Origin: a virus
Lineage: Duplodnaviria > Caudoviricetes
IMG/VR virus record: IMGVR_UViG_3300013121_000029
Span: 64,001-128,000 of that record
Length of the DNA: 64,000 nucleotides
Reading direction: 5' to 3' (one strand)
This document shows positions 32,849 through 58,663 of this stretch, piece by piece. Each line of letters starts with the position of its first letter. Positions within the stretch are counted from its first letter, which is position 1. The position numbers and the translations under genes are program-made. The notes below the pieces were generated by a model that saw only the letters and a list, made by a program, of their open reading frames with translations, searched no databases and was not told the DNA's origin.

Positions 32849-33271
32849 TCAGTATAGTAATAAATGACCAGTAATTGGATTTACTTGTTCCGGATAGGCT
32901 GGCCCAATTGCACAACAAGTTTTTGTCGGAACTCCGTTAAACACTGTTCTTCCAGCATCTTCGATTAACGAACAAATTAATCCTGCGTTCAATGCTTGAT
33001 TGTATATGTCTAATAGTTCTTGTTCAGAATTTACAGATACACAAATCTTAGTGAACGATCCTTCTAACCATTTTTGTAAAGCACTGTACTTTAAATCTAT
33101 ATCATAACTAATTGGATATCTATTACCACCTAATCCATCTGACGAATAAGATATGCTTCCACAACTTAATAAAGCAGCCATTGAAGCGTGTGCTGCTTGG
33201 GAAATAATTTTCCCCACGTTCATATTTAAATCCTTTCTAACTACTATAATTTGTTTAGGTTCGTCGTTCAT
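32849..33271 (-). CDS. pth2: peptidyl-tRNA hydrolase, Pth2 type
   Basis: KQIIVVRKDLNM.VGKIISQAAHAS, DAGRT, TCCAIGP. Confidence 0.9.
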   Translation of the reverse strand: MNDEPKQIIVVRKDLNMNVGKIISQAAHASMAALLSCGSISYSSDGLGGNRYPISYDIDLKYSALQKWLEGSFTKICVSVNSEQELLDIYNQALNAGLICSLIEDAGRTVFNGVPTKTCCAIGPAYPEQVNPITGHLLLY

Positions 33272-33299
33272 AAATACCTCAAAGTAAAGTGACTGCTCA

Positions 33300-34097
33300 A
33301 TGAATTATTTTAAACATTATATATTATTAATTAAAACAAGACAACAGAAGAATCGTGTTAAAGGTTCAGAATATTTTGAAGCCCATCATATTTTACCCAA
33401 ATCGTTAGGAGGTCCTAATAATAAAGCAAATTTAGTGTTACTTACACCACGGGAACACTTTTTAGCACATGTCTTGCTTGTTAAGTTTTGTACAGGAACG
33501 AGCAAGTCAAAGATGGCATATGCTTTAATGAAAATGGTTCAAAATAATCCACAACAAACAAGAAAAATAACATCAAGACAATATGCTCAAATGAGAAAGA
33601 TCATCGAGGTAGTTTGTTCGGGTGAAAATCATAAAAATTATGGAACGAAAAAGACCAAGGAGCAAAAAGAATATTTGAGTAAATTACGTAAAGGAGAAAA
33701 TAATCCTATGTATGGAAAAGAACCTTGGAATAAGGGACAAACAGCAGAAACTAATGATATTCTTAAAGAAAAAGTAGAACGATATAAGCAAAATATAAAA
33801 GAAGGAAAATACACTCATTTTCAGAATAGACCTCCTATGTCAGACGAAGCAAAACAAAAAATGAGTAAAGCCAAAAAAGGAGTACCTAAATCAGAAGAAC
33901 ATAAAAGAAAAATTTCTGAAACAACTAAAGGTAGAAAATTAGATCCAGAACGGATTAGAAAAGCCAAGGAAACGCGGCAACGTAATGGAAAAAAACAACC
34001 TATTGTCGAATGTCCACATTGTAATAAAAAAGGACCATACAATAGTATGTGTAGATGGCATTTTAATAATTGTAAATTACATACAAATAATATATAA
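33300..34097 (+). mobile_element. free-standing HNH homing endonuclease with NUMOD3-like repeats
   Basis: EAHHILPKSLGGPN...NLVLLTPREHFLAH; KGENNPMYGK, SEEHKRKIS; opposite strand, TAAATA at 33271. Confidence 0.85.
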
Positions 34098-35421: not shown

Positions 35422-35450
35422 ATTATATTACAATATTTTTTCTAAGTCAA
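35422..35450 (-). promoter_or_regulatory. sigma70-type promoter for the tRNA trio
   Basis: TTGACT-17-TATAAT. Confidence 0.75.
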
Positions 35451-36268
35451 CGAATAAAAATAGGATTGAATGTTTGACCTTGATACTTATGAGCATTTTT
35501 CTTATGCAGTTCAATCACTTTTCCATACTTTTGTTCTAAATCATATGGACACATGGTGTCCTTCGCAATGTGAAAATATGCCAATTCATCATATGTACAA
35601 CCAAAGTTTTCTTCATCAGATGTTCCATCAATTAAATCACCCGTTGGTACTCTATCAATAATTTGTGAGGGGATCTCAAACCATCTTGCTGCTTCTATCA
35701 CTTCGAATTTGTGCCAATCAGAAATTATTTGCAAATCAACCACCATGTCAGAATTCTTTCCGAACCATCCAACATACTCCATTTCATCACGATTTGTTGT
35801 TCCCACTGTAATAGCGTTTAATTGCTGAGCGTATGTAAATAACATTTGATATCTCAAAGCATAAGAAGATTGTGCAAGTAAATGTTTACTAGGATTATCA
35901 ATCTTCAATTCATTTACCATTAATGAAAGAGTATTGGAACAATCAATATGTTTAATATGAACATTAGGATTATACTGTAATGCATTCTTTAATGTATTAA
36001 TATATGTTGGATCAAAGACATGACCGTACACATTATAAAATCCAATACAATAAGCATATATATTTAAATCTCTTATATATGAACGTTGTACATTTTCAAG
36101 TATATACAAAACGACAGTAGAATCAATCCCTCCACTAATTCCTAAAACAACATTTTTGATATTATGTTCCTTGAGATACTTAGCAACTTTTCGTATCTTA
36201 TTATTAAGATCAAAAAAGTTTAATGTTTGATACTTATACTCTTGTACTTTTTTATCAAAATCAAGCAT
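35447..36268 (-). CDS. nadE: NH3-dependent NAD+ synthetase
   Basis: VLGISGGIDS, GTTNRDE..VGWFGK.SD, HKFEV, PTGDL...SDEENFG.TY. Confidence 0.85.
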   Translation of the reverse strand: MLDFDKKVQEYKYQTLNFFDLNNKIRKVAKYLKEHNIKNVVLGISGGIDSTVVLYILENVQRSYIRDLNIYAYCIGFYNVYGHVFDPTYINTLKNALQYNPNVHIKHIDCSNTLSLMVNELKIDNPSKHLLAQSSYALRYQMLFTYAQQLNAITVGTTNRDEMEYVGWFGKNSDMVVDLQIISDWHKFEVIEAARWFEIPSQIIDRVPTGDLIDGTSDEENFGCTYDELAYFHIAKDTMCPYDLEQKYGKVIELHKKNAHKYQGQTFNPIFIR

Positions 36269-37065
36269 TATCGTGTTGCTCCTTTAAACAATATATCCCC
36301 TCGACAGATGTAACGATAACTGTCCTTATCAGTAAACGGTAATACTGTATGACATAAAGTATGAGGAAACAATACAATTTTCATACAACTTGGTTTAATC
36401 TTAAGCCAGATTTCATCATTTGTGGCTTGTCTTGTCCAATCAGACTTATCTTTTGCATGTTCAGTTGTATCATTAATAAAAGCAAGTTCGCCAGAATTGC
36501 AATTGTTGAAATAAACAACAATACTATATTTTGTCGATGTCTGATTGTAATCATAATTAAAATCGCTATCATAGTGCGGGAAATGTTCTCCACCAGACGA
36601 GTATCTCATAAAACGAAAATATTGGCTGACATTGATCATTTCCCACCAAATCGTTCGTTGGAATTCTACAGTAGACATCCCCCATTGTTGTTCGATTGTT
36701 TGTTCTGTTCTGATGATATCAACAATAGAATATTTTGATACTATATTAGTAAGATATTCAGCAAATTGTTTATCCATAGTGCAAAATCTAGTCGATCCTG
36801 CTAATTTACAATTGTCAGAATCTACTTTCGCTCCAGTAATTGTGACTGGATATGTAGCAGCATGTTTTTCATATAAAGAAAACCAATCTTTCATTTGATC
36901 GACAATTCCACGTTGATCTCTTGTCATCTCATGCGTTGGATTAAGTTCAAATATTCCTTGACCGTGCGAAATGACATTGAAATAAGTAGGCAATCCAATA
37001 AGATTCTTAGGAATAATGTGAGTTACATTTGGACTGGGAAATTCCTTCATTAAATTCATTTGCAT
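36268..37065 (-). CDS. 2OG-Fe(II) oxygenase
   Basis: FRFMRY..GGEHFPHYD, HTVLP, RYICRGD. Confidence 0.8.
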   Translation of the reverse strand: MQMNLMKEFPSPNVTHIIPKNLIGLPTYFNVISHGQGIFELNPTHEMTRDQRGIVDQMKDWFSLYEKHAATYPVTITGAKVDSDNCKLAGSTRFCTMDKQFAEYLTNIVSKYSIVDIIRTEQTIEQQWGMSTVEFQRTIWWEMINVSQYFRFMRYSSGGEHFPHYDSDFNYDYNQTSTKYSIVVYFNNCNSGELAFINDTTEHAKDKSDWTRQATNDEIWLKIKPSCMKIVLFPHTLCHTVLPFTDKDSYRYICRGDILFKGATR

Positions 37066-38213
37066 AACCTCTTAATTTGTTGTTTAAATACCAGAAACGT
37101 TTTATGGTCTTCTTTGGTAAAGGGTAACATAGAACATCTTGTACTGATGTCATAAAATGGGTAACGATAATCATCATTATAAAAATCAGCAAAATCAACT
37201 ATCTCAATATTATCTTGTTGTAACGTGTAATCCATTACTGCTACCACTTTACATCCCAACATTTCTAGACAACGTTTTGTGCCTCCAGTATAGATATCAC
37301 TATCCAGTACTACTTTGTTTCTTAATTTATCAATATCACCATTGTACGTATTGGAAGTCATTAATGGATGTTCGAATTCTCTATGAAAAGGAACATAAGG
37401 AAGGATGTTTTTATATTCTTTACAAATTGTTACTTCAGCATTCGTTTCGTTTTTAAGACGTTGAGCCATTCCGATTTCGGTTTTCATGTATACTGGAATA
37501 ATATCTGAATAATGGTCGTGAAATGTTGCTGAGAACATTGTGAATTCCCATAATTCATTGCAACGTAGATATACTTTTTTCTTAACAACCGGTTTTGGAT
37601 TATCTTTGATTGCATTAGAACTTGATAATCCAGTAGTATCAGGACAATAGAAAAATTGAAGTTTATTTGTCAACAGTCCAAGTTTCGTAAAGTATTCACG
37701 ATCCTTTCCACTTAAAATATAAGGAACATTAGACATTACCAAATTATCGTAACTACCTAATTGTCGAACAACAAAATCATGCACCAAGTCTGTAAAGTTA
37801 AAGTCCCGATCGTTGTTGAGCATTGGATTTAGATCGATACAAATATTGTATTTGGTATCTTTCAATTTTTCAACAATCTTATCAAATCTGTATCTATTAG
37901 TAGCATAAAGAGAATCTTGACCATACTTAGATACAGTATAATCAGTATTTGCAGGGGCAATAACAACTACATAATTATCTGTAAAATGTTTAATCATAGA
38001 CACAAATGATTCAATTACAGAAACATGACCATCGTGAAATTCAGCAAAACACCCTGGAAAGTATCCAATTACTGTTTTGCTATCGATTTTGATTGCTTTG
38101 TTAATCCAATGAACATAATTCACATCCGCCAAACGTTCGAAATTAGATTGTGGATCAAACCAACCTAATTGCTGGAGGATATCTGAATAAATGAAGGACT
38201 GTGTCATAGACAT
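37056..38213 (-). CDS. HIGH-type nucleotidyltransferase fused to a PRTase-like domain
   Basis: FPGCFAEFHDGH, GLSSS; VVLDSDIYTGGT resembles the PRPP-binding loop. Confidence 0.7.
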   Translation of the reverse strand: MSMTQSFIYSDILQQLGWFDPQSNFERLADVNYVHWINKAIKIDSKTVIGYFPGCFAEFHDGHVSVIESFVSMIKHFTDNYVVVIAPANTDYTVSKYGQDSLYATNRYRFDKIVEKLKDTKYNICIDLNPMLNNDRDFNFTDLVHDFVVRQLGSYDNLVMSNVPYILSGKDREYFTKLGLLTNKLQFFYCPDTTGLSSSNAIKDNPKPVVKKKVYLRCNELWEFTMFSATFHDHYSDIIPVYMKTEIGMAQRLKNETNAEVTICKEYKNILPYVPFHREFEHPLMTSNTYNGDIDKLRNKVVLDSDIYTGGTKRCLEMLGCKVVAVMDYTLQQDNIEIVDFADFYNDDYRYPFYDISTRCSMLPFTKEDHKTFLVFKQQIKRLCK

Positions 38214-38236: not shown

Positions 38237-38265
38237 ATTATAAGAGATTAAAATAGTTGTTACAA
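38237..38265 (-). promoter_or_regulatory. sigma70-type promoter for the NadE operon
   Basis: TTGTAA-17-TATAAT. Confidence 0.6.
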
Positions 38266-39783: not shown

Positions 39784-39879
39784 GGCACTTTACTAATACC
39801 AGTAGCGAATTGGTATTAAACGGCAGTTCCCGCCGACGCCTACCCAACCGTTAACGGTAACGGTCCTAAGGGTGGAGTT
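39784..39879 (-). ncRNA. structured repeat, copy 1, with 23S rRNA-complementary segments
   Basis: 72 bp identical to copy 2; three hairpins; CCTTAGGACCGTTA and TTCGCTAC. Confidence 0.65.
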
Positions 39880-40859
39880 CATCTTACATTTAAGTCGCGT
39901 AATCGCTGGCGATTAGGTTTATACATTGTATCTGTTACATAAGTGGTGTCGGAATCGTTTTGAATCAAAAAATTCGATAATGCATGATATCGTGATTTTG
40001 GATGTGCCTCGTTTGATTTTGTTCGTGCTGGTGGTGCTACTCCACTTAACTGTTGAAGCATTTCTTTTTTCATCATATCGAATTCTGATGCATGATAAAT
40101 TAATTCTTTTCGTCTATATCTAGCTGGGGCTCGCATCATGGTAGGGTCATCTGGTAAAACAGAACCATCCTTTTCTGCTTTCTTTTTTCCTGTTATGCCA
40201 CTCAAAACAAAATATTCAATTCGTAATGTATTATCAATTGGTGCTAATACTTCATGAACTAAAGATATGTTAGAAATCAATGTTTGTGAAATTCCGCCAC
40301 GAAATGTCCATTCTAAGCCACGATGTTTCATAAAAGCCTTAGCTTCATCACTAAATTCATAATTTTTAAACATATTATATTTGGTTGCTAACATATCAAA
40401 AAGTTTGTCATATGACAAACATGGACCTTTTTGATGTAAAAAAACCATAGATGATATTAACCCAACGTTAATTAATTTCGGAGACGCGTTGCCGTGTCGA
40501 CCACCTGGTTGTGTGGATCTCCGATATTGCATAAAATACATTGCACCTTCGGGAGTTTCGGCCCAAGAATAAATTTTTCCAGACTTGTCGATTTCATTAA
40601 ATTTTATAAGTTTTAATATGTCGGAAGCATTTTCTGCGTTTAATATAGTTTTATGGCCTAAGTTTATCACACGATACATATCACAATGCTTAACGCATTC
40701 CGGAAAACGACGCATTATTGCTTGAACTAAAATGTTAATCCGTGAACCTTTCGTTGGAAAGGGATTAGCAGCAATACGTTCTGTCGCTTGTATAAACTGT
40801 AAAAGTAAAACTTCCTCATTAACTGCTTCAAACAAAGGTATGATTTCATTAATTTTCAT
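39879..40859 (-). CDS. putative ADP-ribosyltransferase-like virion-internal protein
   Basis: MKINEIIPLFE; MYRVI...YSWAE...HEVLAP (R-S-E pattern); TAAATA at 40880-40885. Confidence 0.5.
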   Translation of the reverse strand: MKINEIIPLFEAVNEEVLLLQFIQATERIAANPFPTKGSRINILVQAIMRRFPECVKHCDMYRVINLGHKTILNAENASDILKLIKFNEIDKSGKIYSWAETPEGAMYFMQYRRSTQPGGRHGNASPKLINVGLISSMVFLHQKGPCLSYDKLFDMLATKYNMFKNYEFSDEAKAFMKHRGLEWTFRGGISQTLISNISLVHEVLAPIDNTLRIEYFVLSGITGKKKAEKDGSVLPDDPTMMRAPARYRRKELIYHASEFDMMKKEMLQQLSGVAPPARTKSNEAHPKSRYHALSNFLIQNDSDTTYVTDTMYKPNRQRLRDLNVR

Positions 40860-40890
40860 AATACAGTCCAATTTTATTGTATTTATTCGT

Positions 40891-40985
40891 GGCACTTCAC
40901 AAACACAGTAGCAAATTGGTATTAAACGGCAGTTCCCGCCGACGCCTACCCAACCGTTAACGGTAACGGTCCTAAGGGTGGAGTT
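40891..40985 (-). ncRNA. structured repeat, copy 2
   Basis: 40914-40985 identical to 39808-39879. Confidence 0.65.
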
Positions 40986-48689: not shown

Positions 48690-49208
48690 TCAATTTCTTA
48701 TATCATCAATGAATTCTTTAAATTCCTCAACGGTGTACAGTTTATCATTATTCCAAAAACCACACAAATGTACAGTATTATTCATTTGTGCTAATACTTC
48801 TTGTTCAGTCTTGAAACTATCGTGATAGGAATCGTTTTCAAAAAATTTATTAACGTCTAATCCTATTGAATCTTGAGAAATAATAATACCTCTAGTATTC
48901 ATAGATGTTTGATTAACTTGCGAGAGCAATGCACTCATCATTCCTTCGTCTCTATTTCCGATAATCTTAGACCAAGCATAGTAGATGGTTGATGGATGAC
49001 GATTAGCATACAATTGTAACTGAGCTAAAAACATTCTAACGTCAGGAATATCAAACCGTTTCTTGTTTAAAGCTAGTGCACGATACATCGTTCCTTCATA
49101 AGCAAAATTAGGAAGATAATGATCAATTGCTTTTGTTAAATTACCACAACGAATAGCGTGGTGAACATAATTATCGATATGATAAAAATGACCCAAAGGT
49201 TTGGTCAT
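48690..49208 (-). CDS. ADP-ribosyltransferase-like protein
   Basis: GTMYRAL...YAWS...EQEVLA (R-S-ExE). Confidence 0.55.
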   Translation of the reverse strand: MTKPLGHFYHIDNYVHHAIRCGNLTKAIDHYLPNFAYEGTMYRALALNKKRFDIPDVRMFLAQLQLYANRHPSTIYYAWSKIIGNRDEGMMSALLSQVNQTSMNTRGIIISQDSIGLDVNKFFENDSYHDSFKTEQEVLAQMNNTVHLCGFWNNDKLYTVEEFKEFIDDIRN

Positions 49209-56722: not shown

Positions 56723-56797
56723 TGGTGCTCGTGGAGGGAATCGAACCCACAACTAACGATTTTAGGGATCGTTTTTCTACCATTGAATTACACAAGC
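56723..56797 (-). tRNA. tRNA with CUA (amber) anticodon
   Basis: GCTTGTG/CACGAGC-A-CCA; ACGAT-CC-CTA-AA-ATCGT; TTCGATT T-loop. Confidence 0.75.
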
Positions 56798-58219: not shown

Positions 58220-58663
58220 TTACTGTTTCCATAAATGATGTTCAATGTCAATTAATTGAGCAGAAATGATAGGTTCAACGATAGTCCAATGTCCTCCGCC
58301 TAAACCACATCCAATCATTGGATAATGAACAGGTAATTGCAAAGATACTGCCATCAAACGAACTTGTTTAAATACTGTTTCGATAGCATCATAATCTACA
58401 TATTTCTTACCATCACGACCATATTTTTCTTGAGTAATGCCATTTACAATCCACAATTGATCAGAAATTTTCACAGGAATAATTTGTCCAAGAAATAATC
58501 TACTTCCTTGCTGATCAAAAACAAAACGATAGTTAACATATACTTGTGGATATTTTTGTTTAATTTGTAAAGCAATCCCTGATCCTTGAACTCCAAGTGA
58601 ATTACATCCTTGGACAATAATTCCTCGTTTAAGAGAAAGAATATCCCCATTAATAGTATTCAT
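58220..58663 (-). CDS. macro domain protein (ADP-ribose processing)
   Basis: GDI, QGCNSLGVQGSGIA, PMIGCGLGGGHW. Confidence 0.85.
   Translation of the reverse strand: MNTINGDILSLKRGIIVQGCNSLGVQGSGIALQIKQKYPQVYVNYRFVFDQQGSRLFLGQIIPVKISDQLWIVNGITQEKYGRDGKKYVDYDAIETVFKQVRLMAVSLQLPVHYPMIGCGLGGGHWTIVEPIISAQLIDIEHHLWKQ

Follow-up and report, generated by a model that had tools for sequence, protein, structure and literature searches.

The window analysed here is a stretch of 64,000 nucleotides, positions 64,001 to 128,000 of the IMG/VR virus record IMGVR_UViG_3300013121_000029, and derives from a phage record of 197.6 kb with about 32% GC and many tRNA genes. An earlier note, made from the sequence alone, had placed on it three coupled genes encoding the nicotinamide adenine dinucleotide (NAD) synthetase NadE, a 2-oxoglutarate (2OG)-Fe(II) oxygenase and a transferase with a HIGH motif and a motif resembling the phosphoribosyl pyrophosphate (PRPP) loop. 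A listing of the open reading frames (ORFs) recovered three overlapping minus-strand ORFs exactly where they had first been placed. The transferase is called protein X below. The features of the locus are the following.

37056..38213, minus strand: gene X, 385 amino acids (aa); domain resembling nicotinamide mononucleotide/nicotinate mononucleotide (NMN/NaMN) adenylyltransferases, fused to a domain resembling type-I phosphoribosyltransferases (PRTases)
37584..38129, minus strand: N-terminal domain of X, residues ~29-210; HxGH adenylyltransferase of the NMNAT/NadD type
37059..37595, minus strand: C-terminal domain of X, residues ~207-385; divergent, type-I PRTase-like/PRPP-synthetase-like
36268..37065, minus strand: 2OG-Fe(II) oxygenase, 265 aa; prolyl 4-hydroxylase (P4H)/PF13640 type
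35447..36268, minus strand: NadE paralogue, 273 aa; single-domain, NH3-type PP-loop amidotransferase
38237..38265, minus strand: promoter-like site TTGTAA-17-TATAAT upstream of X; consensus match 10/12, suggestive only

The genes overlap at both junctions. X and the oxygenase gene meet in an ATGA overlap, in which the TGA stop of X (37058-37056) overlaps an in-frame ATG of the oxygenase at 37059; the longest oxygenase ORF begins 6 nt upstream of this ATG, at 37065. The oxygenase and NadE genes meet in a TAATG overlap at 36268, the TAA of the former overlapping the ATG of the latter. The sigma70-type promoter that had been assigned to the set is present as a site, but such sites are not enriched in the window (23 found against 20.8 expected in shuffled sequence).

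Protein X joins an NMNAT-like domain to a PRTase-like domain

X had no significant Pfam match, PF01467 reaching only 14.4 bits against a cut-off of 21, and single-sequence and profile searches of the PDB returned only marginal nucleotidyltransferase matches. A profile search of 1.8 billion proteins gathered about 36 X-family representatives together with a larger sister family of proteins of 440-620 aa, and HHalign matched the X family to the bacterial sister family over 340 columns with a probability of 99.9%. The alignment of the X family (36 sequences) contains many invariant motifs. The HxGH motif, FHDGH in X, is invariant, residues S197-S198-S199 are invariant or nearly so, and the second motif reads SSSxxIK in X and SSTxxRK in the sister family (the ISSTxxR position).

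The whole protein was modelled by AlphaFold2 with a predicted local distance difference test (pLDDT) score of 89. When residues 29-210 were compared with solved structures using VIA-align, the top 8 matches were all NMN/NaMN adenylyltransferases (Z 11.7-13.9), ranking above phosphopantetheine adenylyltransferase (PPAT) and cytidylyltransferases, and the Foldseek list obtained with the whole model was headed by NadR. In the sister family, PF01467 was matched at E <= 0.01 by 25 of 27 proteins, and its profile found eukaryote-type NMNAT structures at E 4e-20 to 9e-14, NadD at 2e-5 and PPAT at 7e-3. The N-terminal domain of X is firmly assigned as an adenylyltransferase of the NMNAT/NadD type.

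The C-terminal domain (residues 207-385, pLDDT 83 when modelled alone) returned almost exclusively type-I PRTases and PRPP synthetases in fold searches, with weak scores (VIA-align Z 5-6; Foldseek E >= 6e-3), and the C-domains of PRPP synthetases were among its best structural matches. Its loop V-L-D-S-D-I-Y-T-G-G-T corresponds to the family-invariant VLDSDxxS/TGxT (D304-S305-D306..G310.T312) and occupies the same alignment columns as the canonical PRPP loop of the sister family, h-D-D-D-I-x-S/T-G-x-T. The C-terminal part of the sister-family profile matched only APRT, HPRT and PRPP synthetase, at the PRPP loop, with E of 0.04-0.8. A methyltransferase was also considered for this domain, on the strength of a motif-I look-alike at E 1.1 in a profile search, and was rejected as the fold searches gave PRTases. 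Both motifs attributed to this protein in the earlier note, the HIGH-type motif and the PRPP-like loop, thus proved to be invariant features of a family, and the domain assignments made there for all three proteins were supported, that of the C-terminal domain of X as PRTase-like.

The oxygenase and the NadE paralogue

The oxygenase matched PF13640 with 30.1 bits (cut-off 27). The H164-x-D166...H239 triad and R251 are invariant in 32 family members, and the position of R251 suggests that it may bind 2OG. The family profile matched the prolyl 4-hydroxylase structure 6t8m (E 1.6e-4), and the look-alikes found in the ESM Atlas are of the P4H/PiuC/Ofd1 type.

NadE matched PF02540 with 105.5 bits (cut-off 21) and TIGR00552 with 112.8 bits (cut-off 63.65), and fell below the equivalog models NF010587 (103.7 vs 255) and NF001979 (61.7 vs 250). 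Among solved structures it matched NAD synthetases only, down to E 1e-29, the nearest being the short NH3-dependent enzymes 2e18 and 3fiu (Francisella). The PP-loop GISGGIDS (SGGxDS), E162, K171, D174, K187 and a C-terminal N-x-H-K are invariant in the family, and the protein retains its catalytic residues. All NadEs of the module carry GWFGKNSDM instead of the canonical GxFTKxGDG and Q..YA.R instead of N..AR.R.

The three genes are conserved together in phages and metagenomes

Loci of relatives were gathered through exact-protein contig look-ups and one metagenome scan. The order X-oxygenase-NadE was identical in 14/14 loci reached from X or from the oxygenase. The loci reached from X are those of Xanthomonas phage X1, Variovorax phage V45v66 and eight distinct metagenomic phage contigs. 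When the oxygenase was the starting point, the same partners were seen, wherever the sequence was long enough, on two contigs that are more distant and in 14 additional metagenome loci, one of which, L033, has another order (oxygenase, sister-type X, NadE). Across all phage or metagenome loci with a long enough contig (about 25), the trio is thus present, in one order save for L033, and the oxygenase is present in all phage cassettes. The genes flanking the phage cassettes are unrelated, and several contexts are T4-like. No relative was confirmed when viral contigs were scanned with the alignments of X and of the oxygenase. The region itself had no megablast match among phage records, and tblastn of two sister-family proteins against cultured phages gave none either. 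The complete phage V45v66 carries the trio and no PF04095 gene, hence no Nampt, which shows that the trio can stand alone.

Cultured carriers comprise the Xanthomonas phages X1 and BUDD, Variovorax phage V45v66, Streptomyces and Legionella. Acinetobacter phage vB_AbaM_ME3 (L019, 216-222 kb) was not counted as a member since no X homologue is present in that locus. Within about 5 kb, it encodes a related 2OG oxygenase, an Appr-1-p (macro) protein and an NAD synthetase belonging to another subtype, which may constitute a looser or different NAD/ADP-ribose module.

Homologous modules occur in bacteria, often as fusions

One genome per prokaryotic species was probed with the module-specific NadE signature, which identified 37 bacterial loci. 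The module order in bacteria is NadE-oxygenase-nucleotidyltransferase::PRTase. Separate genes for NadE, the oxygenase and a sister-type X were found in 9 of the 37 loci (Streptomyces, Cellvibrio, Bacteroidales, Cytophagales and others), an NadE-oxygenase fusion plus X (nucleotidyltransferase::PRTase) in 7, a fusion of all three in 5, and NadE with X and no oxygenase in two loci from bacteria of the candidate phyla radiation (CPR). The triple fusions are the following.

Legionella longbeachae, L. shakespearei and L. santicrucis: 1115-1119 aa
Paraliomyxa: 1484 aa
Myxococcales metagenome-assembled genome (MAG): 1243 aa

Protein P0290 (1208 aa) likewise carries NadE, oxygenase and nucleotidyltransferase in a single chain. 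In two-protein fusions the oxygenase was joined to NadE only (the 7 bacterial loci) and never to X alone; one protein, P0175, is an NadE-X fusion. No CxxxCxxC protein adjoins the module in the two CPR loci that lack the oxygenase (n=2). Combined, the conserved gene set and the fusions indicate that the three proteins form one pathway, and the homologous modules in bacteria that this pathway is not specific to phages. The genes are clearly conserved as a unit, in phages and metagenomes and as bacterial fusions, so that the outcome named in the earlier note as refuting its reading, genes that do not stay together, clearly did not occur.

At locus L017 (11404-18263), the triple fusion of 1208 aa is followed by two PhyH-family dioxygenases and, one gene past this pair, by a MoxR-like AAA_5 ATPase and a protein that matches VWA faintly. 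This neighbourhood suggests a larger oxidative gene cluster. A conserved protein of 295 aa with no Pfam match lies beside the module in three Legionella loci and in L017.

Two CPR genomes show no NAD route other than the module

In two CPR genomes (0.8 and 1.0 Mb), the NadE of the module is the sole NadE-family gene. Neither PncB, Nampt nor a NadC-type PRTase (PF04095, PF01729) was detected in either genome. X is the only PF01467 gene of one genome, and the other has one additional member of 168 aa. Unless these MAGs are incomplete, the core formed by the PRTase-like domain, the NMNAT-like domain and NadE is their only visible NAD route. No other observation speaks as strongly for genuine NAD as the product of the core, formed by way of a deamido intermediate; it also supports the Preiss-Handler-like logic proposed in the earlier note.

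NAD-related genes also recur around the cassettes. In phage X1, NMNAT and NAMPT genes lie 2-5 kb from the trio. A Nampt-family gene, a NUDIX gene and two NADAR genes are neighbours at L015, NADAR and ART-PolyVal at L005, and a NUDIX gene with a weak NrtR_WHD match at L059. The phage genome studied here carries, outside the window, an NMNAT-Nudix + Nampt operon and an NADAR gene; its Nampt lies about 55 kb from the trio, in a separate operon. In this operon (contig G000:C1, ~43.6-47.4 kb; L003/L004), a full-length gene of the alanine dehydrogenase/PNT family (380 aa, 120-129 bits) comes after the genes for NMNAT-Nudix (370 aa) and Nampt (484 aa), on the strand that carries them; it is an unusual neighbour for phage NAD salvage genes. 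The encoded enzyme, producing ammonia and NADH, might feed the NH3-dependent NadE.

Surroundings of the trio in the window

On one side of the trio is tRNA-Gln and on the other a tRNA-Ala/Cys/Val cluster, with a gene for the peptidyl-tRNA hydrolase PTH2 nearby. This tRNA neighbourhood is not conserved among relatives. In the closest relative (L010), PTH2 and a DUF1937 gene directly follow NadE and no tRNAs are called in the table, whereas in the window the same two genes lie 2-3 kb further on, past tRNAs and an HNH homing endonuclease. The comparison with L010 suggests that the HNH gene, the tRNA-Ala/Cys/Val cluster and small ORFs were inserted between NadE and PTH2; the PTH2 gene (109 bits) adjoins the HNH + NUMOD3 homing endonuclease at 32849-34097. 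One of the 9 tRNA genes of the window (56723-56797, minus strand) was called by ARAGORN with a CTA anticodon and labelled tRNA-Pyl; it is of the amber-suppressor type.

The NAD-centred conflict that the earlier note had read from a macro domain and genes resembling ADP-ribosyltransferases (ARTs) in the window turned out to be weakly grounded. The macro candidate, a 147-aa ORF (58220-58663, minus strand), gave a full-length Macro-domain match below threshold (20.2 bits, cut-off 22), and the two ART-like ORFs scanned (39879-40895 and 48690-49208) had no Pfam match.

A proposed route to NAD and its alternatives

Taken together, the gene set, its conservation and fusions, and the family and fold assignments lead us to propose that the trio represents, in phages, a pyridine-nucleotide module that is widespread but not yet described and that makes NAD via a deamido route, a reading to which we give a probability of about 0.5. 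The product is most likely NAD or a near analogue of it. The substrates, the order of steps, the place of the oxygenase and the benefit to the phage are proposed as follows. The PRTase-like domain of X would couple a pyridine carboxylate, most simply nicotinate, to PRPP to give NaMN. The NMNAT-like domain would then adenylylate NaMN to the deamido dinucleotide nicotinate adenine dinucleotide (NaAD), whose carboxylate the NadE paralogue would amidate with ATP to give NAD+. The last two steps could be swapped, as in Francisella. The oxygenase is an obligatory partner in aerobes and in phages, and the many fusions that join it to NadE suggest a place at the amidation step or beside it. It could supply or unmask the amide nitrogen oxidatively, act on a carboxylate or amide substrate, or hydroxylate the substrate or the product; the tailoring function offered for it in the earlier note stands as one of these options. 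In the phage, the trio would provide a second, Nampt-independent supply of NAD beside the NMNAT-Nudix + Nampt operon and so sustain NAD during infection.

Several observations weigh against this proposal. Firstly, the C-terminal domain of X was assigned to the PRTases from its loop motif and from low scores in the fold searches, which is reasonable without amounting to proof: PF00156 was matched by 1 of the 27 sister proteins, at 19.3 bits and below its cut-off of 26.3, and the known nicotinate, nicotinamide and quinolinate PRTases are of type II, not type I. Secondly, the oxygenase is present in 21 of 23 bacterial modules, although a plain Preiss-Handler scheme offers no step for it. Thirdly, the altered positions of the NadE paralogue correspond to ones that line the acceptor site in the Bacillus subtilis enzyme, and with these motifs changed its substrate may differ from that of canonical NadE. 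Fourthly, Legionella and Streptomyces retain a canonical NadE, so that the module is an add-on there, and a ligase of ATP-grasp type (335-347 aa) lies beside the module in three Legionella loci (L039, L042, L045), in L017 and in L051; these features look more like the synthesis of a special compound. Finally, both CPR genomes are MAGs and may be incomplete.

A first alternative concerns the role of the cassette rather than its chemistry. The trio could serve counter-defence specifically, selected in phages as a fourth pathway that rebuilds NAD+ after depletion by Thoeris, DSR, SIR2 or similar systems. The cassette is found in large virulent-type phages beside Nampt, NMNAT, NADAR and ART genes, the trio of V45v66 has no Nampt at its side, and phages encode NARP1, NARP2 and NARP3 for just this purpose (10.1101/2024.02.11.579819; PMC13464706). 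We consider this role plausible but less likely than not, and somewhat more probable than the two chemical alternatives that follow. Homologous modules are common in bacterial chromosomes, including those of CPR bacteria and Legionella, which points to general metabolism borrowed by phages. Moreover, NADases yield nicotinamide and ADP-ribose, whereas a route through NadE starts from the carboxylate and would need the host PncA or another source. The reading of the earlier note as a phage-born route against Thoeris or DSR was therefore not supported, given modules that are widespread in free-living and host-associated bacteria and often fused; counter-defence would be at most one use of a general pathway.

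A second alternative retains the nucleotide chemistry and changes the product, which would be a modified NAD-like dinucleotide or another nicotinate-derived nucleotide (for example a hydroxylated one), with the oxygenase as tailoring enzyme. Such a product could, in the phage, serve phage ADP-ribosyltransferases, or resist or inhibit host NADases. The obligatory oxygenase, fused into the same polypeptide, speaks for such a system, as does the distinct active-site signature of the NadE paralogue, and bacteria that carry the module, such as Legionella and Streptomyces, keep their canonical NadE as well. The additional enzymes at some bacterial loci can be read in the same way: three Legionella species and L017 have both the ATP-grasp ligase and the 295-aa protein beside the module, L051 has the ATP-grasp ligase alone, and two extra PhyH dioxygenases lie by the triple fusion of L017. 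On the other side, the two CPR modules without an oxygenase constitute the only visible NAD route of their genomes, which implies that the core alone probably yields the real cofactor. Neither the ATP-grasp ligase nor the 295-aa protein was found in the phage cassettes. To our knowledge, no analogue of this kind has been described. We regard a modified product as somewhat doubtful, a little below the counter-defence role in likelihood.

The oxygenase and the NadE paralogue could also, in a third and still more tentative proposal, form the amide of the nicotinate nucleotide by a novel chemistry, in an ammonia-independent and O2-dependent NAD route that would be the sole one in some CPR bacteria. 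Here the oxygenase would release ammonia oxidatively at the synthetase, replacing the glutaminase domain of other NAD synthetases; alternatively, it would hydroxylate an N-substituted amide made by NadE, which would collapse to the primary amide. This chemistry would be built on a type-I PRTase so far unlinked to pyridine salvage.

A function unrelated to pyridine nucleotides, on another carboxylated base or nucleotide (such as an oxygenase-made purine or pyrimidine carboxylate), on tRNA or on nucleic acid, is improbable: purines, pyrimidines or orotate are the usual substrates of type-I PRTases, the trio sits among tRNA genes and near PTH2 and its NadE scores below equivalog-level cut-offs, but the tRNA setting is not conserved in relatives (NadE is followed by PTH2 in L010, and other loci have different flanks), the N-domain of X is specifically NMNAT-like by both sequence profile and fold, NadE finds no solved structures other than NAD synthetases, and NAD-themed neighbours recur.

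Significance

The supply of NAD is a central battleground of phage defence, and NAD biosynthesis is regarded as fully mapped. The module is a hitherto undescribed form of NAD-type nucleotide synthesis that includes an oxidative step without an explanation so far. Its conserved set combines a non-orthologous phosphoribosyltransferase, a distinct NAD-synthetase paralogue and an obligatory oxygenase, and is spread over large phages, Legionella, Streptomyces, myxobacteria and CPR bacteria. If NAD is the product, the trio would add a fourth type to the NAD modules of phages and a new branch to the NAD metabolism of bacteria; if an analogue is the product, it would be a new cofactor-like molecule. 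As cultured carriers exist, the question is directly testable.

Comparison with known NAD systems

The closest match in the literature is a report of annotated pncB-nadD-nadE clusters, made of ordinary enzymes, in jumbo phages (PMC11662467). The preprint by Osterman and colleagues on phage NAD+ reconstitution (10.1101/2024.02.11.579819) mentions neither NadE nor the oxygenase, and our literature search found no paper on NARP4 or on the gene combination of the trio.

The trio differs from the reconstitution pathways NARP1 and NARP2, as the earlier note had proposed. With NARP2 (Nampt + Nmnat, of the KVP40 NadV/NatV type; 10.1101/2024.02.11.579819) it shares the use of PRPP and ATP for NAD synthesis in a phage, and pairs of the NARP2 kind are present in the same phage genome (NMNAT-Nudix + Nampt) and in phage X1. 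In contrast to NARP2, the trio has no Nampt (no PF04095 match), possesses an NadE that implies a deamido intermediate, and includes an oxygenase. The likeness to NARP1 (Adps + Namat) lies in the PRPP-synthetase-like fold of Adps, since PRPP synthetase C-domains are among the matches of the X C-domain. However, the C-terminal part of X is a single PRTase-like domain fused to an NMNAT, whereas Adps has two domains; the trio lacks a Nampt-family (Namat) domain, and there is no evidence for the use of ADP-ribose. NARP3 (PnuC + NadR; PMC13464706) is set apart by the lack of any PnuC or kinase Pfam match in the proteins of the trio, the rest of the genome not having been searched for PnuC.

NadR (NMNAT + ribosylnicotinamide kinase) and NadM (NMNAT + Nudix) resemble X in that an NMNAT is fused to a second domain handling ribose phosphates, which in X is PRTase-like and neither a P-loop kinase nor a Nudix domain. 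In the Francisella route (NadE-type NMN synthetase + NadM; PMC3376133), amidation can precede adenylylation, and FtNadE (3fiu) is among the nearest solved relatives of the trio NadE. Francisella has neither the oxygenase nor the PRTase-like fusion.

The Preiss-Handler pathway (PncB, NadD, NadE) would share with the trio its three reactions, namely phosphoribosyl transfer to a pyridine carboxylate, adenylylation and ATP-dependent amidation, and the two have in common an NadE-family enzyme and an adenylyltransferase of the NMNAT/NadD family. Unlike this pathway, the trio replaces the type-II PRTase (PF04095) with a divergent type-I PRTase-like domain fused to the adenylyltransferase, its NadE is a separate paralogue, and a 2OG-Fe(II) oxygenase is its obligatory third member.

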